Of a stretch of 32,000 nt of DNA, positions 5,198 through 25,815 are shown piece by piece. The position numbers and the translations under genes were made by a program. The notes below the pieces were generated by a model. It saw nothing but the letters and a program-made list of their open reading frames with translations. It did not search any database and was not told the origin of the DNA. Every line of letters starts with the position of its first letter. Positions within the stretch are counted from its first letter, which is position 1. The stretch comes from Nanobdellota archaeon (lineage in GTDB: Archaea > Nanobdellota > Nanobdellia > Pacearchaeales > GW2011-AR1): NCBI GenBank assembly GCA_022563455.1, contig JADFNI010000003.1, positions 12,666-44,665 of the forward strand. Reading direction: 5' to 3'.

Positions 5198-5233
5198 ATA
5201 ATTATAGAAGGGTGGGAGTTTTAAATGTGGTGA

Positions 5234-5747: not shown

Positions 5748-5755
5748 TTTATATA
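5748..5755 (+). promoter_or_regulatory. Archaeal TATA-box candidate (TTTATATA)
   Basis: Lies 17-24 nt upstream of the ATG at 5772 and 23-30 nt upstream of the ATG at 5778. No SD site is present. The spacing fits a leaderless transcript that may start at the second ATG. Confidence 0.4.
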
Positions 5756-5771
5756 TTCTTCAATCTAGTAA

Positions 5772-7352: not shown

Positions 7353-7417
7353 GGGTGCCGCAGTTCTGCATACCCCTGAAGAGCTGAATAAGGGAGCATA
7401 GAAAATTAATTAAGGTC

Positions 7418-11961: not shown

Positions 11962-12042
11962 GGATAGAATGAATGGAAATAGTATATAAAGTTTTCTGTA
12001 TGTTGTATCTATAAAGGAGTGACAATATTTGATTAAAGGTAG

Positions 12043-14778: not shown

Positions 14779-14800
14779 AAGGGGATTAGCCTCTAGAGGT

Positions 14801-14808
14801 ATTTAAGT
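14801..14808 (-). promoter_or_regulatory. Archaeal TATA-box candidate for ppsA (ACTTAAAT on minus strand)
   Basis: Lies 23-30 nt upstream of the ppsA ATG at 14778, with no SD site. Confidence 0.35.
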
Positions 14809-15023
14809 CTTGCTCCTGATTTTGAGGGGCTTTGCCCCCTTTGTACAATCTATCTTGTTGAATAGGGTATATTAGAGTATATAGATTTTGATAAATTTTT
14901 TTTATAGGGTCTAGAGAATATGGCTTGTTTAGTATATATGTTATGATATAGTATATTAAAGTCTATAGATTTGAGCAAAAAAAAAGAGGGTTTTAAATTT
15001 TTTTGGTAAATAAATGTAAGTAA

Positions 15024-15446
15024 CCCCCACCAGCAGGAGTCGGACCTGATCTGGTGGAGGCTTTTTACTAAAGATTTCTCTGATTCAGACGATTCTGACA
15101 TTTCCAAGATTTTGCTCCTTGGTTGTCGACAGCATCGTCTTTGCGTATAACGTGCTGGAAACTGAATGAGCCCCACCTACCATGATTACCTTGTCAATAA
15201 TCATGTTGCGAAGTGTAGGTGAGACTCGATGACCGGAACACCACTCTCATGCTTGGGGGGTCTCTTGCATGAGGCTTCAAAGGTGTTCGGATCATCTCAG
15301 CCAATCATCTTGTTGGATAAATGAAGCCCATCTGCTCATGATAGCCACACAACTAGTCATCTTGAAGATCGCAGGTGAGCTCTTTGATGCCTACACTCTT
15401 GTTTGAAGGTCAGCAACTTCTACAAGAGGCTTCGCAGGGCATCAAA
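15024..15446 (-). other. About 420 nt ORF-free region made of six consecutive stem-loops (candidate structured RNA or origin-like element)
   Basis: Stem-loops at 15024-15060, 15130-15157, 15174-15221 (nested 7-bp and 8-bp stems), 15228-15296, 15325-15381 and 15383-15446 (nested 9-bp, 7-bp and 4-bp stems). One C-A mismatch on the plus strand (in the 15024-15060 stem) becomes G-U on the minus strand; the 15325-15381 stem is equivocal on strand. Confidence 0.35.
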
Positions 15447-15468
15447 TTATTATCTTTATTAGTTCCTG

Positions 15469-15609
15469 CTAGTCGTCGAGAGGATCCTCGAAAAGCTCTG
15501 GGAACTTTTTCCGAATGCGTTCTTTAACTATCAATGCAAAGAGGCTTACGTAGAAGATGCATGTAGTTACTGCTGATCTGAAGAGGCTTTTGACTACTTT
15601 TTGGACCAT
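15469..15609 (-). CDS. Small single-pass membrane protein, 46 aa (not in ORF track)
   Basis: AAGGAAA SD site 5 nt before the ATG. Sequence MVQKVVKSLFRSAVTTCIFYVSLFALIVKERIRKKFPELFEDPLDD: one TM segment followed by a basic/acidic tail. Confidence 0.35.
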   Translation of the reverse strand: MVQKVVKSLFRSAVTTCIFYVSLFALIVKERIRKKFPELFEDPLDD

Positions 15610-15645
15610 TGTATTTTCCTTTGTGTTTGTTGGAAGCGTTATATT

Positions 15646-15780
15646 TTACTTTTTACGTATTCGCATTCGCCCAGATCTTCTTTTATGTCTTGCTTTCTTG
15701 ACCTTTTCCTTTTTCTTTCCTTTAGGTTTTCTGATTAGCTCCCTTAGATCTGTACTTGTTTTGATTGAGTTTCTTTGCAT
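15646..15780 (-). CDS. Very basic small protein, 44 aa (not in ORF track)
   Basis: GAGGT SD site 6 nt before the ATG. Sequence MQRNSIKTSTDLRELIRKPKGKKKEKVKKARHKRRSGRMRIRKK. Confidence 0.4.
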   Translation of the reverse strand: MQRNSIKTSTDLRELIRKPKGKKKEKVKKARHKRRSGRMRIRKK

Positions 15781-15814
15781 GGTTCTACCTCTGGTTTACA
15801 GAGCTTATAACCTA

Positions 15815-16318
15815 TCAAGATTCATCCCTTTTGAGCCTGATTGCCTTTACCCCTTGTGCAAAAGACATTAGGACGAACAGCAAGGTAAAGAGAACTCCGA
15901 CTGTTCTTGCAGGACTTCCACTTCCTACGCGAAAGGCGCTTGCGAAGTTACCGTCGAAGAAGTCCATGACGAAATTTGGAATCCAGAAGTAGAGGACTGT
16001 TGAGTGTTGCACGATTGAAGACAAAACTACTTTTGGTGAAGTCCGAAGAATTTCTTCTCCGAGGGTCTGATCTATCCAGCTTGTGATGCTGAAGAGGAAG
16101 ACCAGCGAGAAGGTTCCAAGAACCATACAAGTGAGCCATTTGAGTGGGCCGCCTTTCGGATTCTGTTCGAAGTAGTCCTTGAGAAATCCTACGGTGATGA
16201 CTCCAGAGGCTATGGCAGTGCAAGTGTTTGCCCACGTGCTCGCTCCCGTGAACAGTGCGATTGAGATTGCATTGAGGATCAAGAAAGTTCTATAGAAATT
16301 GTTGAGATTGTTAAACAT
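15815..16318 (-). CDS. Integral membrane protein, 167 aa
   Basis: ORF with about 4 hydrophobic segments and a GGGGGG SD-like run 4 nt before the ATG. Overlapping alternate-frame ORFs are disregarded. Confidence 0.6.
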   Translation of the reverse strand: MFNNLNNFYRTFLILNAISIALFTGASTWANTCTAIASGVITVGFLKDYFEQNPKGGPLKWLTCMVLGTFSLVFLFSITSWIDQTLGEEILRTSPKVVLSSIVQHSTVLYFWIPNFVMDFFDGNFASAFRVGSGSPARTVGVLFTLLFVLMSFAQGVKAIRLKRDES

Positions 16319-16369
16319 TGTACCCCCCAGATTTGCTGTTGTGTAACGGTTTTTGGTTAATAGTTTTTC

Positions 16370-16528
16370 TTAGATTCTTCTTTTCTTTCTCGCAACAGCC
16401 TTTGCAATTTTTGCTTTGTCTCTTTGCTTTTTGTTTGCAGCAAAGCCATTTTTGATTCTTGAACCATTGCTTGGGCTGCCTCTTTGAATTTTTCGCGTTT
16501 CTTTTTCTTCGTCTTCGTCCTTCTTCAC
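16370..16528 (-). CDS. Basic small protein, 52 aa, GTG start (not in ORF track)
   Basis: AGGAGA SD site 7 nt before the GTG. Sequence MKKDEDEEKETRKIQRGSPSNGSRIKNGFAANKKQRDKAKIAKAVARKKRRI. Confidence 0.35.
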   Translation of the reverse strand: MKKDEDEEKETRKIQRGSPSNGSRIKNGFAANKKQRDKAKIAKAVARKKRRI

Positions 16529-16630
16529 CTAGAACTCTCCTTTCTGATTATCTATTTAAAAAGAAATTTACGCACACTATTATCTAACCTGTTCTTGATT
16601 TCTTTTTTTGCCCTTTGCCCTTTTCTTCTT

Positions 16631-16858
16631 TTAAACGTCCTTGCTTTGCACGTTTTCTTCTCTTTTTGTTTCCTCTTCTTTTTTCGTGTGATCATTGTTT
16701 GACCCCTTCAGTTCTCCGAAGAGTTCTTTTTTGCTTTGTTGATCTTCACGCTCCATTCTGCTTTGCTTTACTTTTTTGAAGGACTTTCGTCGCCTTCGTC
16801 GCAGTTCCATGATTTTCAGCCCCTCGGATGGATTCTTCTCCTGTTTTTCTTTCTTCAT
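16631..16858 (-). CDS. Highly charged K/E/R-rich small protein, 75 aa
   Basis: AAGGAGG SD site 5 nt before the ATG. The SD overlaps the TGA stop of the upstream 51-aa ORF. Confidence 0.5.
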   Translation of the reverse strand: MKKEKQEKNPSEGLKIMELRRRRRKSFKKVKQSRMEREDQQSKKELFGELKGSNNDHTKKEEETKREENVQSKDV

Positions 16859-16869
16859 GGAGTCCTCCT

Positions 16870-17025
16870 TCAGTTCTCATTCGGATTACTTACTTGGAGT
16901 TCTTCTGTGGAAGATCTTCTTCTTTTGAAGATCTTTCTTTCCTCCTTCTTCTGTGCTTTTCTTATTCTTTCCTCCTTCTTCTTGATTTCACGCTTTTCTT
17001 TCTTGGATATGCGACCTTTTGACAC
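16870..17025 (-). CDS. Highly basic small protein, 51 aa, GTG start (not in ORF track)
   Basis: GGGAGAG SD site 5 nt before the GTG. Sequence MSKGRISKKEKREIKKKEERIRKAQKKEERKIFKRRRSSTEELQVSNPNEN. Confidence 0.4.
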   Translation of the reverse strand: MSKGRISKKEKREIKKKEERIRKAQKKEERKIFKRRRSSTEELQVSNPNEN

Positions 17026-17057
17026 TATATCTCTCCCGTTTTTCTTGGTGTTGGTTG

Positions 17058-17183
17058 TTAGGGATGATTCTTCCAGAAGAAGTTATCTTTTTTCTCTTTA
17101 TGAAATCTCATCAAAAATAGGATTGATAACCAGATCAGACTCATTGCTAGAACTTTGAACGCGCTTTCTACGAGATTTCTCAT
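17058..17183 (-). CDS. Small hydrophobic protein, 41 aa (not in ORF track)
   Basis: GGGGAAG run just upstream of the ATG. Sequence MRNLVESAFKVLAMSLIWLSILFLMRFHKEKKDNFFWKNHP, with one TM segment. Confidence 0.35.
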   Translation of the reverse strand: MRNLVESAFKVLAMSLIWLSILFLMRFHKEKKDNFFWKNHP

Positions 17184-17281
17184 TTTCTTCCCCACATATA
17201 ACTGTGATGTTGTTTTGCAGCGAAGAGAAAGGGATCCTTTCGGGTTTGGACCTTAGGATTCCTCTTTTCTGATTTAGCTAG

Positions 17282-17524
17282 CTAGCGCCGCTTTCGTCTT
17301 TGTCTTTCTTCTTCCTTAGTACATCCTTCGAGCAGTTCTTCGAAGAGTTCTCCGAAGTTATCTGATGGATCAGAATCAGAATCGTCATCATCTGCGTGAG
17401 AACTTCTTGCGCCAAGGTCTTCTTTTTGTACGACTGGTTCTACTCTCTTGTATCCGTCTTTTTCGCTTCGAAGCATTTTGATTGCTCGTGATTCTGATTC
17501 TGATTCTGTTCGTGATTTGCTCAT
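17282..17524 (-). CDS. Charged small protein, 80 aa (acidic centre, basic C-terminus)
   Basis: GGGGGAA SD-like run 3-4 nt before the ATG. A perfect TATAAT (plus-strand 17557-17562) lies 32 nt upstream of the ATG. First gene of the small-ORF operon. Confidence 0.5.
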   Translation of the reverse strand: MSKSRTESESESRAIKMLRSEKDGYKRVEPVVQKEDLGARSSHADDDDSDSDPSDNFGELFEELLEGCTKEEERQRRKRR

Positions 17525-17596
17525 GTTTCCCCCATTTGTTTTTGATGGATTGAACTATTATAGTCTGTCAGGATTTACTGAAATGATTTTTTAGAA

Positions 17597-17884
17597 CTAT
17601 ATCTTCTTGTTCGGGTTTTTCCAAATTACTTTTCTTTTGTTTGTGATCTTTCTGATGCTTTGGTGACTACAGATAAAGAGGAGCTGGTGCCCATTGTTGA
17701 AAACAATGAATGCACCATCATCTTTTATCATGTTATGGATGGAAGATTTTCTTACCCTGATTTTAAAATTTTTTACTCTGTTTCTTGGAATTGGAGACTT
17801 TTTGTAGGGGTCCTTTCTCCAGTTCTCTGAGAGAAAAAACGTGTGGGTTCCTACCTTGGTTGGGAAGTAATGCTCTTCGTTCAT
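17597..17884 (-). CDS. Hypothetical protein, 95 aa
   Basis: GGGAG SD site 6 nt before the ATG. No motif recognised. Confidence 0.5.
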   Translation of the reverse strand: MNEEHYFPTKVGTHTFFLSENWRKDPYKKSPIPRNRVKNFKIRVRKSSIHNMIKDDGAFIVFNNGHQLLFICSHQSIRKITNKRKVIWKNPNKKI

Positions 17885-17934
17885 GATTTTCTCCCATTCT
17901 GTTTTTGATTGTTTATTGTGATTTCGCGTTAAAG

Positions 17935-18040
17935 TTATCTAACGCATAAAACGTAAGGGCTCTACCTTTCCCATAGCAGCATCTAAGTCTTTTCCAGGAC
18001 TTTCGAGTTGTGCATTTGGGAGATTGGTAGAGCCCTATCT
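17935..18040 (-). repeat. Intergenic box-plus-hairpin module, copy A
   Basis: Box TTATCTAACGC at 17935-17945, then an 11-bp stem AGGGCTCTACC/GGTAGAGCCCT (about 17956-17966 and 18026-18036) enclosing about 59 nt. Confidence 0.5.
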
Positions 18041-18150
18041 TACATTTTGGGTATAGACCCGGTTCCGTCTATATCCGGTTCAGCTTGTCTACATAAGTGC
18101 TTTTCTCCTTTTTGGTTGGAGTTGTTGATTAATGAACTGTTAGGTTAGAG

Positions 18151-18234
18151 TTATCTAACGCTTAAAATTGAGGACTCTGCCTGCTGTTATACGCCATTCT
18201 AACTGAGCTTTTCAGTTAGAAACAGACAGAGTCC
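18151..18234 (-). repeat. Intergenic box-plus-hairpin module, copy B
   Basis: Box TTATCTAACGC at 18151-18161, an outer stem at 18172-18183/18223-18234, and a perfect 10-bp inner hairpin at 18197-18221. Confidence 0.5.
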
Positions 18235-18245
18235 CCGAACACTCA

Positions 18246-19241
18246 CTAGAAGAACTTGAACTTGAACCCGACTGTTCCTGCGAGGATGCTAGTGTCTGGT
18301 TTCTTGCTTGCAGGAATTGTGACACCCCCTATGAATGTGATGCGTCTCGTTATTATAAATTCGGCTCCGAGTTTTAGATTGACGATGAACGATGCTTTTT
18401 TCGAGCTTTTGGAGTCATCGTTGCCGTTGATCTTGATTGCGGCTAGTCCAATTCCTACTCCGAAGTATGGCTGGATTGGAAACCTTTCCCAAACTGAGTT
18501 CAAGTTGGCAGTAATTTGTGTGACGTCAATTTTTACTAATTGGCGTCTCAAATTTCTAACATTTACATCAACATCAGAACTGTAGTTGATGACGCAACCG
18601 CCGAGGTCGATTCTCCAACTGTCGAAGTAGATTCCCAAATCCGATGACGATCTCTTTTTCTTTGAGAGGCAGAACTCAAAGCCGTCGTTTCCTGTGACCG
18701 TTACATTTTGCCCAAGCCTTTTTTTGAAATAACCTTTGAGGTCGTTGCTTTGAGGGTTGATTACTACCCCGCTGTAGAAGTGGAAATCTTGCAGCCATTC
18801 AGGTTTCCATTCTTTCTTTTGTTCTTTGGCCTCTGCAGTTTCTCTTTCTTCTTTCTCCTGATCTTTGGTCTTCGCAGTTGCAATCGTGGTGTAAATAGGG
18901 CTGTTGCGATGACGCTCTAGTTTTTCGGCATCGCTCTCTTCACTTTTATGATGATCAATTATTGGGTTTGGGGGATTTGGTTGGTGATTTTGTTTTTTTC
19001 GAGTGTTGCTTGCCTCCTTGAGTTTACTAGTCGTGATAGAAGGGGACTTCTTTTCCACCCGGGAAGTGTGTGGCTTTTGCTCTCGGGGAGAGTTATCTAG
19101 TTCGGTCAGTTCGGTCAGTTCGGTCAAAGCTTCTTGCTCGTTCTTTGCCCCTTGCTCAGATCTGTAGTTTATCCCAGCAAGTATTGCTAGAGCTGTTGCG
19201 ATGAATGTTGCGATGACGATACCCCATGCGTTTTTCGACAT
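18246..19241 (-). CDS. Membrane-anchored protein with C-terminal OMP-like beta-barrel domain
   Basis: The preferred start MSKNAWG (19241) has AAGGAA 8 nt upstream; the track start at 19268 is a TTG. N-terminal TM anchor, (TEL)x3 repeat and charged linker. The C-terminal ~190 aa has alternating amphipathic strands and ends ...GTVGFKFKFF, like a bacterial OMP beta-signal. Confidence 0.6.
   Translation of the reverse strand: MSKNAWGIVIATFIATALAILAGINYRSEQGAKNEQEALTELTELTELDNSPREQKPHTSRVEKKSPSITTSKLKEASNTRKKQNHQPNPPNPIIDHHKSEESDAEKLERHRNSPIYTTIATAKTKDQEKEERETAEAKEQKKEWKPEWLQDFHFYSGVVINPQSNDLKGYFKKRLGQNVTVTGNDGFEFCLSKKKRSSSDLGIYFDSWRIDLGGCVINYSSDVDVNVRNLRRQLVKIDVTQITANLNSVWERFPIQPYFGVGIGLAAIKINGNDDSKSSKKASFIVNLKLGAEFIITRRITFIGGVTIPASKKPDTSILAGTVGFKFKFF
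18903..19030 (-). repeat. Direct repeat copy 1 (inside the OMP-like gene)
   Basis: About 130 nt similar to 19207-19339, offset 310 nt, including a 41-nt identical core CTTTTATGATGATCAATTATTGGGTTTGGGGGATTTGGTTG. Confidence 0.7.
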
Positions 19242-19339
19242 CTTTCTATTTCCTTTTATGATGATCAATTATTGGGTTTGGGGGATTTGGTTGCTGATTT
19301 TGTTCTTTTCGAGTGTTGCTTGCTTCCAGAGTTTACTGG
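19207..19339 (-). repeat. Direct repeat copy 2 (spans the OMP-like gene start and the 3' end of the upstream truncated paralog)
   Basis: See copy 1. Differences are scattered substitutions plus one 1-nt indel. Confidence 0.7.
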
Positions 19340-19554
19340 TTGTGGTCGTAGTCGACTTCTATTCCGTTCACGAAGTATGTGGATTTTGTGTCTAGGGACT
19401 CTGGTGGCTCTGTATTCAGTTTGGTCAAAGCTTCGAGTTGCTTGTCTGCCCATTGCTCAGTTTTGTAGTTTATTGCAGCAAGTATTGCGAGCAGGCTTGC
19501 GAGCACGAAGAGAGATCTTACATATTTGTCGAATCTGGTTGTCGTTGTTGTCAT
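19333..19554 (-). pseudogene. Truncated paralog of the OMP-like protein N-terminus (73 aa; TM anchor only)
   Basis: AGGAGA SD site. LAILAAINYKTEQWADKQLEALTKL parallels LAILAGINYRSEQGAKNEQEALTEL of the downstream gene. It ends at a TAA where the ~130-nt repeat begins, and it has no barrel domain. Confidence 0.45.
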
Positions 19555-19603
19555 GTTGTCTCCTGTTGATTGTTGGTTGTTATTGATATAGCTTCGCGCA
19601 AGA

Positions 19604-19694
19604 TTATATCTGACGCGTAAAATTGGAGCCCTATCCCACCACCAACTGAAGGGAACTTCCCAGGAGTTGATGGTTTGCGGTAGGGTAGGGCTCT
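19604..19694 (-). repeat. Intergenic box-plus-hairpin module, copy C
   Basis: Variant box TTATATCTGACGC at 19604-19616 overlapping a minus-strand TATAAT (plus-strand 19603-19608). Long imperfect stem at 19625-19640/19677-19694 with an inner stem. Confidence 0.45.
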
Positions 19695-19802
19695 GTCGAA
19701 CATCGTTTTCTTCGCTTTTGGCTTAGAATTCGCTTTGTCCGAAGATGCTGTTGCAAGAGAGGATGGTTTTTTCTGGAATGTCTCGTATTGTTCGAAAAAG
19801 AT

Positions 19803-20078
19803 CTAGATTGCAGTCATGGAAGTTTCACCCAACTTTCTTTTGCTAGTGCCTGGCTTTCCTTTTGGCCAAAGAGACGTGCTGATGTAGTGGCCGTGATCAA
19901 TGAAGTATACTTGCTGTAAGGTTCGAATTACTGTCAAATTGACTTTCGTTTCGGTGGTCTTGGACTTGAGCTAGAACCTGACGAAATTCGGAATCACAAT
20001 TGTTGCAAAGATTCCGATGATTACAATAATTATCATGAGTTCGATCAAGGTGAGGCCATTTTTTTTTCGAACAGTCAT
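19803..20078 (-). pseudogene. Bacterial-type type IV pilin / T2SS pseudopilin interrupted by an in-frame TAG
   Basis: The 35 aa before the first TAG (19971-19973) read MTVRKKNGLTLIELMIIIVIIGIFATIVIPNFVRF. The same frame continues LKSKTTETKVNLTVIRTLQQVYFIDHGHY... to a second TAG at 19803-19805. This is a prepilin cleavage/methylation motif G|LTLIEL with Glu at +5. Confidence 0.6.
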
Positions 20079-20370
20079 TATTTTTTCCTGTCCCTTTATT
20101 GTGTTGGTGGTTAAGTGTTAGGCGTCGTTCTTTTTGGCGAGAAAGCTGGCCTTGAGAAATTCCTGGAAAGATTCCACTTTTGAAGAGTAGTATATATGGA
20201 ACTTCTCAAGGCTTTAGACATTCATTTTTTATTCTCCTATAATAATTAATGATTGTCTGATTTTCGAAGTGCTGTTGTGAACTTTGCAACGCTAAAAGTG
20301 GGAAGCTCTTCAGAGGGATTGGCCTTGGAGGAGCTTCTATGGTTGTTGCAATCTGGTCATGGTCAATTAG

Positions 20371-20410
20371 TTTGGACCAGTTTGAACCAGTTTGAACCAG
20401 TTTGAACCTA
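20371..20410. repeat. Four tandem 10-bp units (TTTGAACCAG), iteron-like
   Basis: Units are TTTGGACCAG, TTTGAACCAG, TTTGAACCAG and TTTGAACCTA. They lie in the noncoding gap between the lipoprotein and pilin genes. Confidence 0.6.
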
Positions 20411-20474
20411 TCTGTATTGTCTGGATTAGGTCAATGTTGTATCTGAAGCGATAGGTCCTGCCTTCTTCTTCATT

Positions 20475-20837
20475 TCATTTCTCGTTTTGCAAAATCTCCT
20501 TGTAACTGGGCATATTTCTTACAGGTATTTCTAACAGATTTATGAGTTCTTCTTGAGAAACAATGAACAGCAGTATTTCTTCTGCAGTTGTCGCTGGGTG
20601 AAGGCCTAGAAGCTTGATTTGGTCTTGACGCCATATCTCGATATCGTAATCATTGACGTCTGCCCAGGTTGCCGTGCTTTTGAGTCCTCGCGCTTCGATT
20701 TCTCTTTCGAGATAACTTTTGCCTCCTTCGTATGCGAAGTCGTGCCAGTCGTCGATGTAGCTGTTTTGACTTATGCATCCAGTTGTTGCGATTGCGACTA
20801 CTGCGATCATGATTGCTGTTGTGATATTTAGGGTCAT
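20475..20837 (-). CDS. Putative lipoprotein, 120 aa
   Basis: AAGGAGAA SD site 5 nt before the ATG. Signal peptide ends in a lipobox-like IATTGC. Confidence 0.55.
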   Translation of the reverse strand: MTLNITTAIMIAVVAIATTGCISQNSYIDDWHDFAYEGGKSYLEREIEARGLKSTATWADVNDYDIEIWRQDQIKLLGLHPATTAEEILLFIVSQEELINLLEIPVRNMPSYKEILQNEK

Positions 20838-20841
20838 GATG

Positions 20842-20901
20842 GTTCTCCTTGTTTTCGTTGTTTGATTTTTTGACCTATACAGAAATCCTTAGACTTCTGA
20901 A
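20842..20901 (-). repeat. Promoter/leader repeat, copy 1
   Basis: About 55/60 identical to 22399-22458. Read on the minus strand it is hairpin, TATAGGTC, CA-rich leader, AAGGAGAAC, then ATG. Confidence 0.6.
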
Positions 20902-21141
20902 AAAATTCTAAATTCTTCATCTCTCTATAATGAGGGGGTATGTTTTGTTTGTCTTTTCTTTTTGTAGCTTAACCGGGGGAGGCTAAGTTCGACGGGATTA
21001 CTATTTTGTTCTCTCTGCATCATTGAGGGCTGGATCTGACGGCTTTCTTAACTTCGATATCGGGTTACACAAGAGTTCTTTTATGCCCTTGTTATCGAAT
21101 AAGCCGCCTATATGATTGCATTAGTACGTCTAGAGAATTTA

Positions 21142-21699
21142 TTAGAACGTCACCTTAAATCTTGCTTTGCCGCCCTTACCTTTCTTGAGAATGCCAACAC
21201 TCCACTTCATACGTACAGGAGGCTTTCCAATTCTAGCAATGCTTCCTATATCGCCTTTCACCCCTTTACCGGCAATCCTGATCGACGGCTTAAAGAACCC
21301 TCGCTTAGCTTTAGATCTAAGTCGCTGGACCGGGGTGTCTTGAAGAAGGGTTTTCTTTTTCTTATCTACCATTGCTGCTCCTTCAATTGCTAGTTCCCAT
21401 GCCAGCTGTTTGTTCCGGGTGCTAATTGCCATTATTAGCGCCTTGTCCAAGTCGTAAAGAATGTTTCCTTTTCCAAGGGAAGCACCGAAGGTTGGGATTT
21501 GTATTGAAGTACTGGCGGAAGTATATCTTCCTAGATACGGTGGTGCAGCACTGTGGACCCTGTTTCTTTTTTCTTGGTAATTGAAGTTGAAGAACTTTTC
21601 AGGGCCTTGACTTGTGTTTTGGGCTGTTGCATCTGTTGCAACGCTCATTGTCAAAATGACAAAGGTTGAAAGAACAAACTTTACTATGGAACTTTTCAT
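21142..21699 (-). CDS. Secreted basic protein, 185 aa
   Basis: AAAGGAAA SD site. N-terminal signal peptide (...MSVATDATA|QN). K/G-rich C-terminus ending in F. Confidence 0.55.
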   Translation of the reverse strand: MKSSIVKFVLSTFVILTMSVATDATAQNTSQGPEKFFNFNYQEKRNRVHSAAPPYLGRYTSASTSIQIPTFGASLGKGNILYDLDKALIMAISTRNKQLAWELAIEGAAMVDKKKKTLLQDTPVQRLRSKAKRGFFKPSIRIAGKGVKGDIGSIARIGKPPVRMKWSVGILKKGKGGKARFKVTF

Positions 21700-21911
21700 T
21701 TCTTTGTTTCCTTTTTACTTTAAGTGATCAACTAATTTCCAATTCAATGTGGTGCTAGGAAACTTGGTGTGTTTTGTTTGGTTCTCCTTTCTTTATGTTT
21801 CGTTGTAGTTATTTTTAGTGCACTATTGTGCTTGAAAGAGTACCTTTCCCTATGGTACTAGAAGGACTTATTTGTTGTTGACTTTAGAGTCAGTCGGTTA
21901 GTTAGTTAGTC

Positions 21912-22349
21912 TTACTCAAATTCTTCGATCAACCCCCAGACCAACCCAAAGACCAACCCAAAGACAGGTCCTAAGACAAACCCAAAGACCAACCCCAAGA
22001 CCAACTCAAGGATCAACCCCAAGACAAACCCAAAGACCACCACCCAGACAAACTCAAAGACCACCCCAAAGACCAACCCAACAATCAACCCATAGGTCAA
22101 CCAATAGAACAATCCCCTTTCACCGTAGCTCTTGAGGTTATTCCATCCATATTTTTGCCATGCAATGAAGCTTATGGCGGTTGAGGCTACTGAGATGTAG
22201 CAAATGATTGGGCATATGAAAAATGAGGGGTGGAAGGATACTTGAGAGTCTTCTTGTCCAACTCCTAGTTCTTTGAAAATTAGGTGGGAGTGATAGATCA
22301 TGGCTATGCTTGCTACTCCGAGAATGAGTGATACGAGTAGTCTTACCAT
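21912..22349 (-). CDS. Membrane protein with extended GxxxG glycine-zipper repeat
   Basis: 145 aa. The C-terminal half, GLIVGLVFG...VFGFVLGLILELVLGLVFGFVLGPVFGLVFGLVWG, has Gly every 4th residue and is encoded by tandem CCAAAGACCAACCC-like DNA repeats at 21931-22090. The N-terminus is uncertain (see the leader repeat at 22399). Confidence 0.55.
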   Translation of the reverse strand: MVRLLVSLILGVASIAMIYHSHLIFKELGVGQEDSQVSFHPSFFICPIICYISVASTAISFIAWQKYGWNNLKSYGERGLFYWLTYGLIVGLVFGVVFEFVWVVVFGFVLGLILELVLGLVFGFVLGPVFGLVFGLVWGLIEEFE

Positions 22350-22398
22350 AGAACTCTTGCTGACGCTGTTTGTTGAGATTTCTTGAGTGGAAATGACA

Positions 22399-22458
22399 GT
22401 TCTCCTTGGTTTTGTTGTTTGATTTTTTGATCTATACAGAAATCCGTAGACTCCTGAA
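22399..22458 (-). repeat. Promoter/leader repeat, copy 2
   Basis: Same unit as 20842-20901. At the position of the ATG in copy 1 it has ATT (22392-22394), which is in frame with the downstream 145-aa ORF. Confidence 0.6.
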
Positions 22459-22509
22459 TAAAGGTTGCCCTCCTCTAAAGAAGCTGGAAGGACTTTGGTG
22501 GATGCTTTC

Positions 22510-22908
22510 CTAAACTTCGTAACCTTCCATCCTCATCTCTTCCTCTGTCTTGATGGAGATTCCGTCGTTAGTGATGCCCCAGAAGTGATTTTCGAGTCTT
22601 TCGTTTTCGAGTCTTTCGATTACTACGAATTGATCGGTTAAATTCGTCGAGAATGGGAAGACTACTGAGAAGAGAATCTCTTCTCTTGTTTGGCTTGTAG
22701 TGCCATAGACGTTGATTTGTAGGAACTTAGTTCCGTTGAGAAGTTTTGGTGATTGTGGTTTTTTGCCTTTGTTTCGGTGATCGCCGTTCGTGTGAAGTTC
22801 TTTGACCTTGAACTCTGTGAGGGCTCCTCTTCCGAGTTTTGCGCATGAGAGCCCTGCGATTTGTATTGCGAGTGCAACGTTTTCGTTTGCTCGAAGTTCT
22901 CTTCTCAC
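22510..22908 (-). CDS. Hypothetical cytoplasmic protein, 132 aa (paralog family member, weakest match)
   Basis: GTG start with AGGAGA 4 nt upstream. Shows loose similarity to the 116-aa and 144-aa ORFs (LSCAKLG / FLQINVYG...ILFSVVF). Confidence 0.5.
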   Translation of the reverse strand: MRRELRANENVALAIQIAGLSCAKLGRGALTEFKVKELHTNGDHRNKGKKPQSPKLLNGTKFLQINVYGTTSQTREEILFSVVFPFSTNLTDQFVVIERLENERLENHFWGITNDGISIKTEEEMRMEGYEV

Positions 22909-23059
22909 ATGATCTCCTGTTTACTCTATGTTGTTTGGCTAGTTGATTGTTGTTGACCATCACAGATGTTGTAGGCATCTGGAGGAAGTGGGGAAGCCTT
23001 ATTAATTTGTTAACAAGACTTCCTTTTTTATTGCTCTTGCTTCTTTGGGTTCCTAGTGA

Positions 23060-23410
23060 CTAGTGGGATTTTCGCTCGAGATTCGGAACCTGATTTAGAT
23101 CATTTGCATCGAAGAGACGGTTTTCTCTTCCTCGAGAGTTTCGAAAATCGATGCTTGCCGTGGTGAGGTGGTAGTAATGACCTTCTTTTTTGTTCGTGAC
23201 TTCGAGGTAGGTCAGAACAAGTTTGGCACCTGTTTCATATTCAACTCTTACCTGAAAGGTCGAACGACTTTGAGCGCTGTGAACGATTTCCATACAGGAG
23301 AAATTAGCTCTCTGGTGCCTGTTTGTTCCAGGGGTTTTTACCATGATGAGGTTTGCGGCAATTGCGGCGTCTCTTTTAAGGACTAATGGAATCGTGTTTT
23401 GGGTGGACAT
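23060..23410 (-). CDS. Hypothetical cytoplasmic protein, 116 aa (paralog family member)
   Basis: AAAGGA SD site. Shares CME, VRVEYETGAKLVLTYLEV and ASIDFRNSRGRENRLFDANDL blocks with 25053-25487. Confidence 0.55.
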   Translation of the reverse strand: MSTQNTIPLVLKRDAAIAANLIMVKTPGTNRHQRANFSCMEIVHSAQSRSTFQVRVEYETGAKLVLTYLEVTNKKEGHYYHLTTASIDFRNSRGRENRLFDANDLNQVPNLERKSH

Positions 23411-23537
23411 GATGGATCCTTTTGTTTGCCTTATAATTGGGCTTTGAATTATTTAGTGTGATTCTTGATTTGTAGTTGATTTGTAATTGTGTGATAAAAC
23501 TTTTTGGATTAAGTAAGTTTAACGCTCTTACTTTTTA

Positions 23538-23897
23538 TCAAATATCTTCTAAGGTAGAGAGATCTATGACCTCTGTCACATTTCCCTTTTTCCTAGTTAT
23601 ATTACCATAACAGCCTTTACTAAAAATTCCGTGAAGTCTGCAATTGGCAATACCTCTTACATAGGTTACATCTCCTGAAAGTTTATCAAAATCACCTAGG
23701 AGACCTTCACCTAATCCTTCTTCGCATACTTTATCAATCCTTATAAAACAATTATTAGGGTGGATAGGTATGCTGCGAATCATAGATTTTCCGAGTCCTT
23801 TTGCAGTTCTTGCTAGTCTCTCGGCTATTTTTCGCTTTTCTTCAAGGGATATTTCAAGTTCAGATTCAGCTTTATTAACATTAACAGCAAGTAGCAT
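23538..23897 (-). CDS. Hypothetical protein, 119 aa
   Basis: AAGGAGAA SD site 6 nt before the ATG, the same SD style as the rest of the block, although this stretch is locally AT-rich. Confidence 0.5.
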   Translation of the reverse strand: MLLAVNVNKAESELEISLEEKRKIAERLARTAKGLGKSMIRSIPIHPNNCFIRIDKVCEEGLGEGLLGDFDKLSGDVTYVRGIANCRLHGIFSKGCYGNITRKKGNVTEVIDLSTLEDI

Positions 23898-23961
23898 TTA
23901 TACTTCTCCTTTTTGGTGATTTAATTACTTTCTAGATGTTGTTAATTTATTAGATTTCCTT

Positions 23962-24348
23962 TTATGATTCTTTTTGCTTTATTAAGGAAATGGTTAGGGA
24001 TATAAAATAACTAATCAATCCTAAAACAATTGAAAGGTTGATGTTGTAAAGAAAATCCGGAATTGGATTACTTTCTAACTCACGGATAATCTCAGCTATT
24101 ATTCCAATTCCAATTGACGAAATTAAAATTGAAAAAAGTACAGAATAAAAAATGGTAATATTCTGATGGATCAATTTTGCCAAGAAGGCCGAACTTGCAA
24201 TCCCTGAGAGTGTGAGAGAAACTCCGATTCCTTCCATTGGATTTTCCATCATGAGATTGAGGTAAAGAAAAATGATGAAAATTGCGGCAAAGAAAATGAA
24301 TCCAGTAGCTGAGATGTTGTTTTTTGGATAGATGATTTCTTCGGGCAT
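23962..24348 (-). CDS. Small integral membrane protein, 128 aa
   Basis: AGGAGA SD site 6 nt before the ATG. About 4 hydrophobic segments. Confidence 0.55.
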   Translation of the reverse strand: MPEEIIYPKNNISATGFIFFAAIFIIFLYLNLMMENPMEGIGVSLTLSGIASSAFLAKLIHQNITIFYSVLFSILISSIGIGIIAEIIRELESNPIPDFLYNINLSIVLGLISYFISLTISLIKQKES

Positions 24349-24695
24349 TTTGGATCTCCTGAGTCCTATTATTTATTTATTTATTGGGCTTGGTTGATGG
24401 TTGTACATACTACAGACGTTCTTGAACGTCTGGAAGAAATGCACCTTCCCCTGATAGTAGCGAGAAGGGCTTCGTGATTCGACAAACACTAGAAGCATTA
24501 GTCAAAGTGACGCTTTAGTGTGTCTCCGGCCGATGGTTCAAATAAAAGTTTTATTGATGGTCGGGTGCATCGTGGGTGGATCATTCATGAGTCGATTTCT
24601 CCTTTTGGTTGTTGGTTGATGTTGTTGGTTCATACAGGATCAATAGATTCCTGCGAAAAAGGTACCCCCTCTTTGGTAGCCGGAGGATTTTGATC

Positions 24696-24911
24696 TTACT
24701 TATTCAGTCTGCGCTCGACTAGCTGGTAAACCATCGTTGCTGTTGGGATTTTATTCTCCCTGGCTAGGCGTTTGAGTACGCGCAGTTCCTTGTCAGAGAT
24801 CATTATTGCAACTCGATTTCTTCGTGAGTTTGGGTTTTGGCCTTGTCCTGTTCCAATTGGACGACCTGCTCCAGCACGACGACCACCCCATCCGACTTTC
24901 TTATTTCTCAT
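24696..24911 (-). CDS. Ribbon-helix-helix (CopG/Arc-like) DNA-binding protein with Gly/Arg-rich N-terminal arm
   Basis: The preferred start MRNKKVGWGGRRAGAGRP (24911) has AGGAG 7 nt upstream. The C-terminal RVAIMISDKELRVLKRLARENKIPTATMVYQLVERRL fits a strand-helix-helix pattern. Confidence 0.55.
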   Translation of the reverse strand: MRNKKVGWGGRRAGAGRPIGTGQGQNPNSRRNRVAIMISDKELRVLKRLARENKIPTATMVYQLVERRLNK

Positions 24912-25052
24912 TGTACTACTCCTATTGTTTCTTGCTTGGTTACTTTCCCACTTCAAAATAGAAATTAAGAAGTGAAAAATGGTGATGGATCTTTGGATAA
25001 TAGATTATACCTGAGCCCTATTGTTTATTTGGCTATTTAGGGGTGAGGCTTT

Positions 25053-25487
25053 CTAAAGGGGATAGATGCCAACAAGTTTTGCTCTCATAAGCGCGCTTAT
25101 AAGCTGCTTATCCTTAATTATATTAGGACAGTTGTGGATGTTATTCTCTCTCGCCTCATTAAAAATCGGCACTAATTCATCTTCACCTAGAAGCTCATCT
25201 TCACTTCCCCATCTACGAAAATTGATACGGGCATCCAGAAGTTCTTCGCAAAGCATGCCTACATTTGGAAAAGTACAAAATGTCAAAAGAACGAGAGGGC
25301 CTTGATCAAAATCAACTTCTATCCGGATTATGCCTACTTCAGGAAATGCATTCTTTATATTTATCTTAGGATCTTGGGGTAGAAGATATCCATGGGATCC
25401 TTCCATACATATTAGAATTATTCTAGCTGTAGTAGTGAACATCAGCTGTCGATCAGGAGTAATTTCTTCTATATCGAAATTAGGCAT
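25053..25487 (-). CDS. Hypothetical cytoplasmic protein, 144 aa (paralog family member)
   Basis: GGGGAA SD site. Shares CME, IRIEVDFDQGPLVLLTFCTF and ARINFRRWGSEDELLGEDEL blocks with 23060-23410. Confidence 0.55.
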   Translation of the reverse strand: MPNFDIEEITPDRQLMFTTTARIILICMEGSHGYLLPQDPKINIKNAFPEVGIIRIEVDFDQGPLVLLTFCTFPNVGMLCEELLDARINFRRWGSEDELLGEDELVPIFNEARENNIHNCPNIIKDKQLISALMRAKLVGIYPL

Positions 25488-25815
25488 TTTGGTTCCCCTA
25501 TTATACGTATTCCATTAAGGAAATGTAGATTGATGTGTATGAAATACCTATTAGGGGGTATTTCGGTTGATTTTTAAAGATCTCGCATGGAGGTCTCTAT
25601 TAGAAATTTGTCTCTTTTTACCTATTTCTTTCTTGAAAAGAGGTTTTTCTTTGTCTTTTCGTTAGGTAATTTTTTTAGATCCTTTTTTGTTGTTTGTGTG
25701 TCGGGGCTAATCTTGAGGCTGTTGTGCTTCAAGGTTGCGTTGTCGTTTGTGTTTTGGATCTATTGTTTGTTTTGTGTTTTATTTTGTTTTAAATGTGATT
25801 TGATTAGTTAGATAC

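Follow-up and report, generated by a model that had tools for sequence, protein, structure and literature searches.

A compositionally deviant island beside a conserved ATPase gene of a DPANN archaeon carries an apparent bacterial prepilin relic and has counterparts at the same site in related genomes

Introduction

Archaeal integrons, chiefly cassette arrays without an adjacent integrase (CALINs), have been documented in Nanoarchaeota and other archaea (PMC9668308). The possibility that DPANN archaea have bacterial hosts was raised by Castelle et al. (PMC8204110). The locus described here is a 10.8-kb island (14991..25815, minus strand) in the chromosome of a DPANN archaeon, located within the 32,000-nucleotide stretch of DNA that was analysed (the window). 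The host is of the Woesearchaeota type; the nearest relatives of its ppsA gene are found in Woesearchaeota MAGs, and identity to Woesearchaeota-type MAGs is 75-76%. The island consists of 18 short ORFs in one orientation, is about 58% coding as against 91% in the flanks, and deviates from them in composition. Inter-domain transfer, an unrecognised integrated element and a chimeric assembly had been put forward in the initial annotation. The explanation favoured here, with moderate confidence, is an insertion hotspot extending across the lineage, at which the cargo was acquired horizontally and is for the most part decaying.

Results

Composition and translation signals

The flanks are archaeal. 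The L10e, L35Ae and class I GluRS genes called initially were confirmed, and a Trm11-like tRNA methyltransferase is also present. In 1-kb windows, the GC content ranges from 0.24 to 0.40 across the flanks and from 0.34 to 0.45 across the block, so that the GC step noted initially is present, although not at the size given to it (from 25-35% to 43-47%). The regions are better separated by codon position 3 than by overall GC, with a GC3 of 0.432 in 17 block ORFs versus 0.255 in 18 flank genes. Intergenic GC is 0.38 in the block and 0.31 in the flanks, and the tetranucleotide correlation is 0.93-0.96 between segments of the flanks and 0.70-0.89 between block and flank. The credible ORFs lie exclusively on the minus strand across the block, as had been stated.

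The shift in composition is uneven. The ORFs near the ATPase gene are host-like and the distal ORFs are deviant. The ATPase-proximal sub-block (23411..25815) has near-host codon usage and contains four ORFs of 144, 71, 128 and 119 aa (23538-25487; GC3 0.22-0.39), among which a ribbon-helix-helix-like protein (24696-24911) and a protein with four TM segments (23962-24348) were recognised by eye. Searches of Pfam, PHROGs and PADLOC assigned none of the four to a family, the one exception being a weak PHROG match for the ribbon-helix-helix-like protein. The distal sub-block (14991..23410) has strongly deviant codon usage and contains bacterial-type envelope genes; GC3 is 0.42-0.56 for most ORFs between 15815 and 23410.

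A Shine-Dalgarno (SD) core of at least 4 nt precedes 13 of the 18 block starts (at least 5 nt in 11 of these), and G-runs precede three further starts. The start of the ORF at 21912..22349, singled out initially as the only one in the block lacking such an element, has neither an SD core nor a G-run. SD sites had been reported as absent from the flanking genes inspected; the enrichment in the block is real, but 5 of 18 flank starts do have a core, in every case a weak one. In many flank genes, the ATG is preceded by a TATA-like box at a distance of about 25 nt. Within polycistronic units, archaea, too, use SD sites at internal genes and, therefore, SD signals alone are insufficient to assign a bacterial origin.

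Genes of the island

By eye, about 8 of the 18 translated ORFs have a signal peptide or TM segment. The 145-aa membrane protein at 21912..22349 has a C-terminal half built from a 12-nt tandem repeat (GLVF-type repeats; repeat family D1 spans 21903-22118). It is followed by a secreted protein of 185 aa (21142..21699) ending in RFKVTF. When 1.84 billion representatives were searched exhaustively with HMMER, the only matches were the 185-aa protein itself and one partial relative, P0146, which lies on a 4.2-kb contig with 11 small co-oriented ORFs. A putative lipoprotein of 120 aa (20475..20837), without a match in family searches, has a signal peptide read from the sequence as ending in ATTG|C. 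The lipobox reported for it is thus visible, although atypical at position -3 and without support from prediction tools.

The 331-aa protein at 18246..19241 begins with a signal or anchor segment, has an OMP beta-barrel domain in its C-terminal part and ends in FKFKFF. The match to PF13505 (OMP_b-brl; E 3.2e-7, 31.1 bits with a cut-off of 28.7) and the terminal F agree with the OMP-like barrel recognised at the outset. A word-indexed search of 5.8 billion proteins found only the protein itself, and the AF2 model (pLDDT 33) was too low in confidence for use. The adjacent 73-aa fragment (19333..19554) is a paralog of the N-terminal part of this OMP-like gene and represents a partial duplication of it, and direct repeats D2 (98 nt, 91%) and D3 (87 nt, 78%), spaced by about 300 nt, lie at the gene and the fragment. 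Family searches were empty for four consecutive small ORFs (16370..17524) that are highly charged (K/R/E-rich), each preceded by an SD core or G-run, and for the 167-aa polytopic membrane protein (15815..16318) that is the final clear ORF of the island.

The prepilin relic

The PilA-type prepilin at 19551..20078, with the processing motif G|LTLIELM, matched Pfam N_methyl above the cut-off (E 1.3e-6). Its presence had been noted correctly; two in-frame TAG codons, at 19971-19973 and 19803-19805, had been overlooked. The 23 PilA relatives recovered are 39-59% identical, one being labelled Deltaproteobacteria and one lying in a bacterial context next to a PBP transpeptidase, PilZ and a response regulator. 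Both TAG codons align with Q of bacterial PilA; this residue is invariant in RFQLKSK and present in 7 of 8 aligned relatives in EGQVFF. In the DNA alignment, TTC TAG CTC of the prepilin stands opposite TTC CAG CTC of a bacterial pilA. The gene is thus a pseudogene, and it is the only gene of the block to which alignment assigns a bacterial origin.

The possibility was considered that the donor reads TAG as glutamine; the pilin would then be intact, and use of the standard code would make the coding density look too low. The alignment of both stops with Q is as expected, and reading through TAG lifts ORF coverage of the minus strand from 0.67 to 0.89. However, 6 of 17 block ORFs end in TAG, the TAG of the OMP-like gene sits directly after the required terminal F with a TGA next, and the other extensions are short or enter the leader of the next gene. 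Moreover, the window contains no suppressor tRNA, and CAG to TAG is an expected transition under AT bias. This reading is disfavoured and considered exceedingly improbable.

Borders and assembly support

The island is bounded on one side by the stop codon of a HerA/FtsK-superfamily ATPase gene (25816..27756, minus strand), a conserved anchor upstream of the variable site, whose product has a C-terminal winged-helix-like tail. The protein matched DUF87/HerA, Zot and ResIII in Pfam, CedD and HerA weakly in NCBIfam, and HerA of PDB entry 4d2i with an E value of 6.5e-6. Among its 807 homologs, the best 120 are 60-69% identical and lie on contigs of up to 569 kb; the named sources are mostly Nanoarchaeota, Pacearchaeota or simply archaeon. 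The ATPase gene is a core DPANN gene. Just upstream of it is a conserved gene for a 148-aa coiled-coil partner (27764..28210, minus strand), with tblastn matches in 35 of the ATPase-anchored loci. An ORFan with host GC, rich in beta-strands and OMP-like in appearance, is located just upstream at 28359-29117.

The distal border was placed at a T-run near position 14,990, not far from the edge at 15,020 proposed initially. In the adjoining conserved host sequence (14841..14990, minus strand), the T-run precedes an AT-rich motif that occurs twice and has ATATACTATAT as its palindromic core. This host sequence is the sole part of the spacer between the ATPase gene and ppsA (12043..14778, minus strand) that is homologous between the window and locus L006, and its AT-rich motif recurs in L020. 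The gene ppsA, identified by its Pfam families, is the conserved host gene at the far side of the site. Domain, tRNA, Rfam and repeat searches found no integrase or transposase domain, tRNA, Rfam match or flanking direct repeat at the island, in agreement with the first inspection.

An empty site is present in L020, where the ATPase gene adjoins ppsA with only 760 nt between them. This locus is collinear with the window through L35Ae, L10e, the tRNA methyltransferase, the 148-aa gene, the ATPase gene, ppsA and the next gene. Both junctions are spanned by four contigs from three further assemblies, which match the window at 99.94-100% and break or differ solely at repeats within the block. In one of these variants, L002, an extra 337-nt module with a single gene (101 aa) lies between 10-nt direct repeats, AACCACCAAC, at the microhomology found at 20103..20112 (minus strand) in the window; another assembly has a 1.1-kb deletion within the block.

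The island is real and not an artefact of assembly. A chimeric contig, in which an assembler joined bacterial to archaeal DNA, would explain why the composition jumps and why bacterial-type genes are present, and the comparison contigs (MEGAHIT-style with names of the form k141_..., scaffold and Logan assemblies) may share their sample and reads with the window. However, two false joins exactly at the syntenic ATPase/ppsA position would be needed, and the junctions were reproduced by three different pipelines. Furthermore, equivalent blocks that are joined to host DNA at both ends within a single contig occur in unrelated samples and species (L006, L023, L038, L040, L041 and L052). Together with the empty site, these observations effectively exclude the chimera suggested initially; its probability is negligible.

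Equivalent blocks in related archaea

The DNA that adjoins the ATPase gene on its downstream side is GC-richer by 0.10-0.15 in about two thirds of related loci. The excess, taken as the highest 2-kb GC within 5 kb minus the GC of the ATPase gene, was calculated for the 15 loci that extend 4 kb or more to each side. The mean was 0.092 downstream and 0.030 upstream (Wilcoxon p = 0.003), and an excess of at least 0.07 was found downstream in 10 of the 15 loci and upstream in one. The control consisted of 8 DPANN loci anchored on ppsA with no ATPase gene next to it, and none of their 225 windows had such an excess.

The cargo differs between loci, with no common gene even where ppsA is 75% identical. 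The families in the equivalent blocks include sigma-70, CsrA, PEP-CTERM, N_methyl prepilins and MipA. SD-preceded ORFs lie on the strand of the ATPase gene in 13 of 16 blocks (131 versus 46 ORFs), and the GC of the block follows that of the host at a near-constant offset (r = 0.90, n = 10). Searches for an integrase, a tRNA, att repeats and attC sites were negative. These data point to a recurrent insertion hotspot beside a core ATPase gene rather than to a single event.

Discussion

The island is absent from a collinear relative, and the same site holds unrelated GC-richer cargo in about two thirds of the relatives. The region between the ATPase stop codon and the conserved T-run/AT-rich border would thus represent horizontally acquired DNA. 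The inter-domain transfer proposed initially is borne out for the pilin relic, whose relatives are bacterial PilA in bacterial contexts; for the remaining cargo it is plausible because equivalent blocks elsewhere carry strictly bacterial families. The source would be outer-membrane bacteria, or mobile gene pools circulating among them, as seen for the pilin and presumed for the rest. The nonsense mutations, partial duplications, microhomology deletions and low coding density suggest that the cargo is mainly transient and decaying and does not form a working bacterial envelope system. Entry may have occurred without an element-encoded integrase, by a host recombinase or by illegitimate recombination at a site that is permissive and perhaps structured. 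Since each intact ORF has its own SD site, these ORFs are probably translatable in the archaeon. The ATPase-proximal sub-block, with its host-like codon usage, may be older or more adapted than the distal one, although its four ORFs could instead be native, fast-evolving genes. Not all of the evidence favours acquired, decaying cargo. Three ORFs were searched for homologs, and the two other than the pilin, the OMP-like and 185-aa proteins, are essentially without relatives; a donor can therefore be named for little of the block. The constant GC offset between block and host is not predicted by random uptake from assorted bacteria. The strand bias of the cargo suggests a directional mechanism or selection for expression, not passive junk, and mostly intact ORFs with good SD sites fit function as well as recent arrival.

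The last two points would also suit a hypervariable accessory locus, a replacement-type flexible island swapped between related strains by homologous recombination in the conserved flanks and maintained by selection. Its secreted, membrane and regulator-like proteins (OMP-like barrels, pilins, lipoproteins, PEP-CTERM proteins, sigma-70 and CsrA) would contact or manipulate a partner organism, possibly an outer-membrane bacterium. The proportion of ORFs with signal peptides or TM segments and the shared orientation with the ATPase gene are consistent with this, as is the recurrence of prepilins (window, L045, L052), OMP-like proteins (window, L030, L031) and PEP-CTERM proteins (L006 and, by eye, L018 and L030). 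The OMP-like ORFan upstream of the ATPase gene would also fit, as would the bacterial hosts considered possible for DPANN archaea (PMC8204110). However, the prepilin is a pseudogene, the blocks are only about 55-60% coding, structural deletions are present in the population, and no cargo gene is common to the loci, so that conservation is not demonstrable. OMP barrels also require BAM-type insertion machinery, which is not known from archaea. Such a functional locus is considered rather unlikely.

Even less probable is an integrated element from a family not yet recognised, be it viral, plasmid or IMEX-like. It would carry all its genes on one strand and no integrase of its own, and a host recombinase would have inserted it in a fixed orientation, in the manner of Xer at dif; the two sub-blocks would then reflect successive or degraded copies. 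The single chromosomal site, the orientation bias, the expected lack of an integrase, the palindromic motif at the distal border and a leader and SD style uniform within each block, as from one donor replicon per block, are in its favour. So are the ribbon-helix-helix-like gene near the proximal end and the P0146 contig, whose co-oriented ORFs are accompanied by a repeated promoter-like motif. On the other hand, capsid, terminase, Rep, relaxase and integrase are absent from the block and from 60 cargo ORFs of 14 other blocks, flanking direct repeats are absent from the 7 loci with both borders, and the cargo is of a bacterial chromosomal type (PilA, sigma-70, CsrA). In addition, tblastn of two block proteins against 50,697 phage records gave no match, and the ATPase locus has none in IMG/VR. 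A CALIN, each short ORF being a cassette bounded by attC sites, would account for short, co-oriented, orphan-rich ORFs with their own SD sites, many with export signals and hypervariable between genomes, and for the single-gene module that varies between assemblies; the integrons on record in Nanoarchaeota (PMC9668308) add to its appeal. However, RYYYAAC...GTTRRRY pairs are absent from the window and L006, and a relaxed scan for imperfect hairpins bounded by AAC/GTT (about 45-140 nt) found none in either block, compared with 0-3 in shuffled sequences. Strong folding after stop codons is rare (z of -5.3 once, most -1.9 to +1.6), no tyrosine recombinase is present, and the indel edges are a plain 10-nt direct repeat and not an attC site. 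A CALIN is accordingly disfavoured and very unlikely.

Acquired cargo at a recurrent site, the explanation preferred here, can be set beside earlier findings in the same lineage. Bacterial sigma-70 genes are prevalent in Woesearchaeota, with mis-binning ruled out (PMC8204110). A hotspot for cross-domain gene capture, as proposed here next to a core ATPase gene, appears to be previously undescribed.

Composition and translation signals of the block

An ORF survey confirmed that all credible ORFs of the block (14991-25815), 18 in number and short, lie on the minus strand. In 1-kb windows, the flanks had a GC content of 0.24-0.40 and the stretch from about 15.0 to 25.8 kb one of 0.34-0.45. The rise from 25-35% to 43-47% estimated by eye in the initial annotation is therefore real but smaller. 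The step is much sharper at the third codon position than in windowed GC, as GC3 was 0.432 in 17 block ORFs and 0.255 in 18 flank genes. Intergenic GC was 0.38 in the block and 0.31 in the flanks. Additionally, the tetranucleotide profiles of flank segments correlated with one another at 0.93-0.96, while block and flank correlated at 0.70-0.89. These values of GC3 (0.43 vs. 0.26) and tetranucleotide correlation represent the deviant composition that is a hallmark of an acquired genomic island. The block is not uniform. GC3 was host-like, at 0.22-0.39, in the four ORFs that lie closest to the ATPase gene (23538-25487), and it was 0.42-0.56 in most ORFs within 15815-23410. The coding fraction was about 58% in the block and about 91% in the flanks.

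A Shine-Dalgarno (SD) core of at least 4 nt was found ahead of 13 of the 18 block starts, with G-runs ahead of three more, and ahead of 5 of 18 flank starts. The five flank cores are weak in each case, and the contrast in SD sites that had been described thus holds. The TATA boxes ascribed to the flanks were seen again, about 25 nt upstream of the ATG in many flank genes, which is the spacing expected of leaderless archaeal mRNAs. Neither sigma-70-type promoters nor intrinsic terminators occurred in the block more often than in shuffled sequences. T-runs were not depleted on its coding strand and there is thus no sign that the block was constructed for read-through transcription.

Integrity of the assembly and the empty site

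The possibility was considered that the contig is chimeric. The ATPase protein and one block protein were each present on contigs of other assemblies. One of these contigs (L001) spans the region from the L35Ae gene across the ATPase/block junction, and two others (L002 and L003) span the junction of the block with ppsA, all with 99.94-100% identity to the window, although these assemblies may share one sample with it. The contigs differ from the window, or break, only inside the block and at repeats. L002 has an extra 337-nt module with one 101-aa ORF and the direct repeat AACCACCAAC at its bounds, the stretch 18,997-20,103 is missing from L003, and a contig break at about 22.26-22.40 kb adjoins a 70-nt repeat. 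The two copies of this repeat (20836-20905 and 22393-22462, 89% identical) are the leader/SD regions of the genes at 20475-20837 and 21912-22349, and the break in that assembly adjoins the second copy.

Independent support came from L020, a related locus with an ATPase 64% identical to that of the window. Its genes on both sides follow the same order as in the window, but only 760 nt separate the ATPase stop at 7628 from the ppsA start at 8391. This is the empty site, with ppsA beside the ATPase, that the initial annotation had proposed to look for in relatives, and absence from a collinear relative is a further hallmark of an acquired genomic island. With contigs of other assemblies crossing both junctions and L020 collinear around the ATPase/ppsA site, the chimeric assembly that had been listed as an option is extremely improbable. 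The foreign-looking block is confirmed, with the corrections noted: it is genuine, foreign in composition and missing from a collinear relative.

The pilin relic and the other block ORFs

The prepilin noted previously, with its G/LTLIEL motif, was examined at 19551-20078. When glutamine was put at two in-frame TAG codons, the protein (G/LTLIELM) matched the N_methyl family PF07963 with an E-value of 1.3e-6 and 28.2 bits against a cut-off of 21.2, and it showed both the methylation motif and the hydrophobic helix. A total of 23 PilA-type relatives with 39-59% identity were found. One is labelled Deltaproteobacteria, and another lies beside genes for a PBP transpeptidase, a PilZ protein and a response regulator on a contig with a GC content of 0.66, a clearly bacterial neighbourhood. 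The first TAG aligns with the invariant Q of RFQLKSK and the second with the Q of EGQVFF in 7 of 8 bacterial relatives. At the DNA level, the block pilin reads TTC TAG CTC and bacterial pilA reads TTC CAG CTC. The noted family assignment therefore stands, but the frame is interrupted by the two TAGs; in addition, there is an internal deletion, and the C-terminal ...C...GQSVF region is deleted or degenerate. As judged from these alignments, 19551-20078 is a relic of a bacterial pilA gene, inactivated by CAG-to-TAG changes.

It could be argued instead that the donor read TAG as glutamine and that the pilin is intact. This recoding was rejected, since TAG terminates 6 of 17 block ORFs and the read-through extensions are implausible. 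Moreover, in the OMP-like gene the TAG comes directly after the terminal F, and an intact, recoded pilin is hardly credible.

The OMP-like protein of 331 aa (18246-19241) ends in F, as had been noted. Its C-terminal part matched PF13505 over residues 209-337 of the 340-aa ORF, with 31.1 bits against a Pfam gathering cut-off of 28.7. A word-indexed search of 5.8 billion proteins returned only the protein itself, and PDB sequences gave no match. The AF2 single-sequence model of the domain had a pLDDT of about 33 and was unusable. Translations and repeat comparison also revealed a truncated duplicate of the N-terminus of this gene in the block.

The 185-aa secreted protein (21142-21699) had one partial relative in an exhaustive HMMER search of 1.84 billion representatives. 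This sole relative is borne by L068, a 4.2-kb contig from Logan SRR29093005 with a GC content of 0.54 and 11 small co-oriented ORFs. The motif GCCGATAyATAAAGGG is repeated ahead of the genes of this contig; by resemblance, we take it to be a candidate promoter of the T3/T7 phage type. The only PHROGs match on the contig was an acetyltransferase. Of the three block ORFs whose relatives were sought, the pilin therefore has its closest relatives among bacterial PilA proteins, and the OMP-like and 185-aa proteins are essentially relative-free. The inter-domain transfer suggested in the initial annotation is borne out for the pilin relic by these bacterial relatives; for the rest of the block it is only plausible, and there we infer a bacterial source.

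Two polytopic membrane proteins, a putative lipoprotein and a ribbon-helix-helix-like protein in the block received no family assignment. The same is true of four consecutive small ORFs of 51-80 aa, composed almost wholly of K, R, E and D, at 16370-17524 on the minus strand, each preceded by an SD core or a G-run. These may be nucleic-acid binders or coding-like debris. In the 145-aa membrane ORF (21912-22349), a 12-nt tandem repeat of about 18 units at 21903-22118 encodes GLVF-type repeats in the C-terminal half.

The host flanks and the ATPase

Pfam and NCBIfam identified L35Ae, L10e, a Trm11-like tRNA methyltransferase, class I GluRS and PEP synthase among the flank products, in agreement with the archaeal markers L35Ae, L10e and GluRS recognized earlier. 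The nearest relatives of the PEP synthase gene, ppsA (12043-14778), were 75-76% identical and came from MAGs labelled archaeon or Candidatus Woesearchaeota. The C-terminal tail of its product, about 150 aa encoded at 12043-12500, is extremely acidic (E/D-rich), with shorter forms in two related loci, L005 and L006. One ppsA-bearing record, L008 (DAOTCN010000001.1), is titled 'Candidatus Paceibacterota bacterium'. Genes for L35Ae and L10e adjoin its ppsA, so this locus is archaeal, and Pacearchaeota and Paceibacterota were probably confused when the record was titled. Four flank ORFs of host GC (2382-3347, 7418-8053, 11038-11961 and 30352-30723) had neither a Pfam family nor a homolog in the related loci fetched, indicating that orphan genes are common in this genome outside the island too.

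The ATPase (25816-27756) belongs to the HerA/FtsK superfamily, with Pfam matches to DUF87, Zot and ResIII and a PDB match to HerA (4d2i). The NCBIfam matches to CedD and HerA were weak and far under the family cut-offs. With 64.5 bits for CedD (NF053655) against an equivalog cut-off of 600, the likeness to the Ced/Ted import ATPases is at the superfamily level only. The ATPase had 807 homologs, of which the best 120 were 60-69% identical to it over the full length. These homologs were found on contigs of up to 569 kb and the named ones were mostly labelled Nanoarchaeota, Pacearchaeota or archaeon. The gene for a 148-aa coiled-coil protein (27764-28210 in the window) is kept directly upstream of the ATPase gene in 35 loci. 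A search of IMG/VR with the ATPase alignment found no relatives. On this comparative evidence, the ATPase gene is a vertically inherited core gene and not the gene of an element. A role as a mobile-element component was accordingly rejected, given this core-gene status and the conserved upstream synteny. HerA-based anti-phage defence, in which the ATPase is paired with a cognate effector such as SIR2 or DUF4297, was also rejected, as PADLOC gave only weak HerA/mad8 matches to the ATPase (at most 39 bits) and none to its neighbours.

Recurrence of cargo at the ATPase site

Throughout the order, this site is occupied by cargo that is similar in kind but unrelated in sequence. In L006, a locus of another species with a ppsA 75% identical and an orthologous ATPase C-terminus, a different block of about 5.5 kb occupies the same position. 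The GC content of this block is 0.45-0.53 against 0.37-0.42 in its flanks, and its small same-strand ORFs include CsrA (E-value 4e-26), a PEP-CTERM protein, a cold-shock-domain protein and a lipoprotein.

When metagenome contigs were scanned with the ATPase alignment, 48 loci were recovered, 15 of which had at least 4 kb on each side of the gene. In these 15 loci, the GC excess, calculated as the highest 2-kb GC within 5 kb minus the GC of the ATPase gene, had a mean of 0.092 downstream and 0.030 upstream of the ATPase (Wilcoxon p = 0.003). An excess of at least 0.07 was found in 10 of the 15 loci downstream and in one upstream. In the control, eight ppsA-anchored DPANN loci without an adjacent ATPase, none of 225 windows had an excess of at least 0.07. 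The GC of the blocks follows that of the host (r = 0.90, n = 10) and exceeds it by about 0.10-0.15. In L018 and L025, which are among the loci that have no clear GC step, a reading of the sequences still found PEP-CTERM, lipoprotein and OMP-looking ORFs at the site.

The cargo is unrelated from locus to locus, poorly coding and SD-led. It lies on the ATPase strand in 13 of 16 blocks, with 131 SD-preceded ORFs on that strand vs. 46 on the other; one exception, L037, is inverted and displaced. About 48 of 60 cargo ORFs from 14 loci had no Pfam family. Among the families of the remainder were N_methyl (twice), sigma-70 regions 2 and 4 (in L030), PEP-CTERM, MipA, CSD, Band_7 and a lysis lipoprotein, and Pfam detected no integrase, Rep or capsid protein among the 60. 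The hotspot is the main addition to the original observation of a block. No description of an ATPase-adjacent hotspot was found in the literature, the coverage of which was incomplete, so that novelty is unproven.

In one locus, L019, the tRNA methyltransferase gene is separated from the 148-aa gene by a second GC-rich block. The GC content there is 0.55-0.65 on both sides (500-8000 and 11966-21956) of a unit comprising the 148-aa gene, a 193-aa ORF and the ATPase gene. Furthermore, a gap of 0.7-3 kb separates the 148-aa gene from the ATPase gene in L018, L022, L027, L030 and L031. The second block and the gaps indicate that the neighbourhood has more than one variable slot. In the window, the slot between the tRNA methyltransferase and 148-aa genes holds a 252-aa ORFan (28359-29117, plus strand) with a GC3 of 0.13, a signal peptide and a beta-strand-rich amphipathic C-terminal half ending in ...LGYVFKLD. 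The predicted protein looks OMP-like. It had no match in Pfam or PDB and no homolog in any fetched locus, and its AF2 model (pLDDT about 32-33) was unusable.

Borders and integration machinery

At the distal border (14841-14990), on the ppsA side, a T-run precedes an AT-rich motif (AATATACTATATCAnAACATATA) that is present twice and has ATATACTATAT as its palindromic core. This border is the sole part of the ATPase-ppsA spacer that is homologous between the window and L006 (6040-6280). The motif is also present in L020 (7890-7960 and 8300-8345), with a perfect palindrome of 19 nt. It may serve ppsA as promoter or operator, bind a protein or be a site of recombination. On the proximal side, TCACA occurs within 100 nt after the ATPase stop (25716-25815 in the window) in 11 of 22 loci, vs. 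3.6 ± 1.7 in shuffled sequences. A G-poor tract with an A+C content of 0.70-0.84 comes after it in the closer relatives. The empty locus L020 also has the tract, which is therefore host DNA located at the proximal edge of the variable site.

No tRNA or Rfam family was found in the window, and Pfam detected no integrase or transposase domain in it, nor any relic of one among stop-to-stop fragments of its ORF-poor stretches. Direct repeats common to both borders were absent from the seven loci compared. The mobility genes, tRNA target and flanking repeats by which genomic islands are recognized were thus lacking, just as the initial annotation had seen no integrase, transposase, tRNA or att repeat at the borders. 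The attC sites of integron cassettes were sought with our own scans rather than the IntegronFinder model. A strict core-pair scan gave none, and a relaxed hairpin scan gave none vs. 0-3 in shuffled sequences. Hairpin folding after stop codons was inconsistent. A tyrosine recombinase or IntI was not present among the main window ORFs scanned, a set that excluded ppsA. As regards dif-like flanks, no repeat was common to both borders and the AT-rich palindrome was on the distal side only.

Of the virus hallmark genes, namely those for capsid, terminase, portal, Rep and integrase, none was detected in the block by Pfam, and PHROGs gave one weak match of unknown function among 10 proteins. A tblastn search of two block proteins against phage records returned nothing. 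A phage origin was rejected on these grounds, the PHROGs results being uninformative for the block proteins and for L068, together with the lack of an IMG/VR relative of the ATPase.

Interpretation and significance

We hold with moderate confidence that the block is acquired, decaying cargo that entered a hotspot without an integrase. DNA would enter after the ATPase stop and ahead of the conserved T-run/AT-rich border with no element-encoded integrase, and would then decay under the AT-biased mutation and deletion of the host. Decay is suggested by the CAG-to-TAG changes, a shift of third positions towards A/T when compared with bacterial pilA, the truncated duplicate and the microhomology-bounded indels. 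The ATPase-proximal sub-block, with its host-like GC3, may be older or more adapted than the distal one, and the SD sites of intact ORFs could allow their translation.

Passive uptake does not account for the orientation bias, the constant GC offset or the recurring envelope and regulator genes, and these features keep two rivals alive. The site may be a hypervariable partner-interaction locus under selection, although we regard this as unlikely. More doubtful still is an element of an unrecognised kind that has no integrase and was inserted by a recombinase of the host. An integron-type array would fit the layout, but it failed every attC test run and is quite improbable. A speculative idea, to which we give little credence, is that the site is a dedicated direction-biased capture locus for the GC-richer DNA of a bacterial partner or host with an outer membrane, possibly aided by the ATPase and its coiled-coil partner. 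Such a locus would jointly account for the fixed site, the near-constant GC excess, the orientation bias and the recurring bacterial envelope and regulator genes. If it exists, it would be the first locus-level genomic evidence that some Woese- and Pacearchaeota live on bacteria.

Acquisition and decay at a hotspot, our preferred reading, would also have consequences if the pattern is genome-wide. Bacterial genes in DPANN are known, but where and how they enter such tiny genomes is not, and the hotspot would provide an address. The mechanism of inter-domain gene entry would become testable in existing metagenomes, as would the fate of the incoming DNA, since decay has been caught in the pilin relic and in population-level deletions. 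The identity of the partners of uncultured Woese- and Pacearchaeota could likewise be tested, as the cargo may record them. For MAG curation, filters based on GC and taxonomy see such blocks as contamination and could discard them in error.

Comparison with known systems

Like filamentous, inovirus-type prophages with a Zot ATPase, the block has small ORFs in a common orientation, many of which encode membrane or secreted proteins, beside an ATPase with a Zot match. In contrast, the ATPase here is a core gene with conserved synteny, not found in IMG/VR, and the cargo is without replication or coat signatures. IMEX elements, such as the CTX phage and the gonococcal genetic island, integrate at dif by means of the host Xer recombinases. 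The block resembles them in its single chromosomal site, the lack of its own integrase, the orientation-specific insertion and the possible tandem accumulation. In contrast to them, neither dif-like flanking repeats nor element hallmark genes were detected, and the AT-rich palindrome is confined to the distal side. No archaeal dif is known beside the ATPase gene.

Integron cassette arrays, mostly CALINs, have been described in archaea including Nanoarchaeota and were proposed as platforms for inter-domain gene transfer (Ghaly et al. 2022, PMC9668308). The block shares with CALINs the tandem, hypervariable short ORFs in one orientation. It differs in that attC-like sites and IntI were undetected, although a CALIN would not need IntI, and in that the leaders within each block have the look of a single donor and not of a mosaic.

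Passages of Castelle et al. 2021 (PMC8204110) report that sigma-70 and further bacterial systems are widespread in Woesearchaeota and that mis-binning was ruled out, and they raise the question of bacterial hosts for some DPANN. The bacterial genes carried by this block and its counterparts conform to the pattern in those passages. The passages concern genome-wide protein families and have no fixed locus, compositional signature or decay, and the word 'island' is absent from the main text.

Compared with the hotspots of horizontal transfer in bacteria, the block is unusual in five ways: its DPANN host, the bacterial-type cargo, the near-constant GC margin, the mostly shared orientation of cargo and upstream core gene, and the lack of a recognisable integration apparatus at borders without tRNA, integrase or repeat. 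Moreover, the site persists among relatives with ATPases about 47-70% identical. In its behaviour, the block is nevertheless like a genomic island at a conserved hotspot. As in the flexible genomic islands of bacteria, the composition is deviant, the site is empty in a relative, the cargo varies from locus to locus with surface-related and orphan genes enriched, and the core genes on both sides are conserved.
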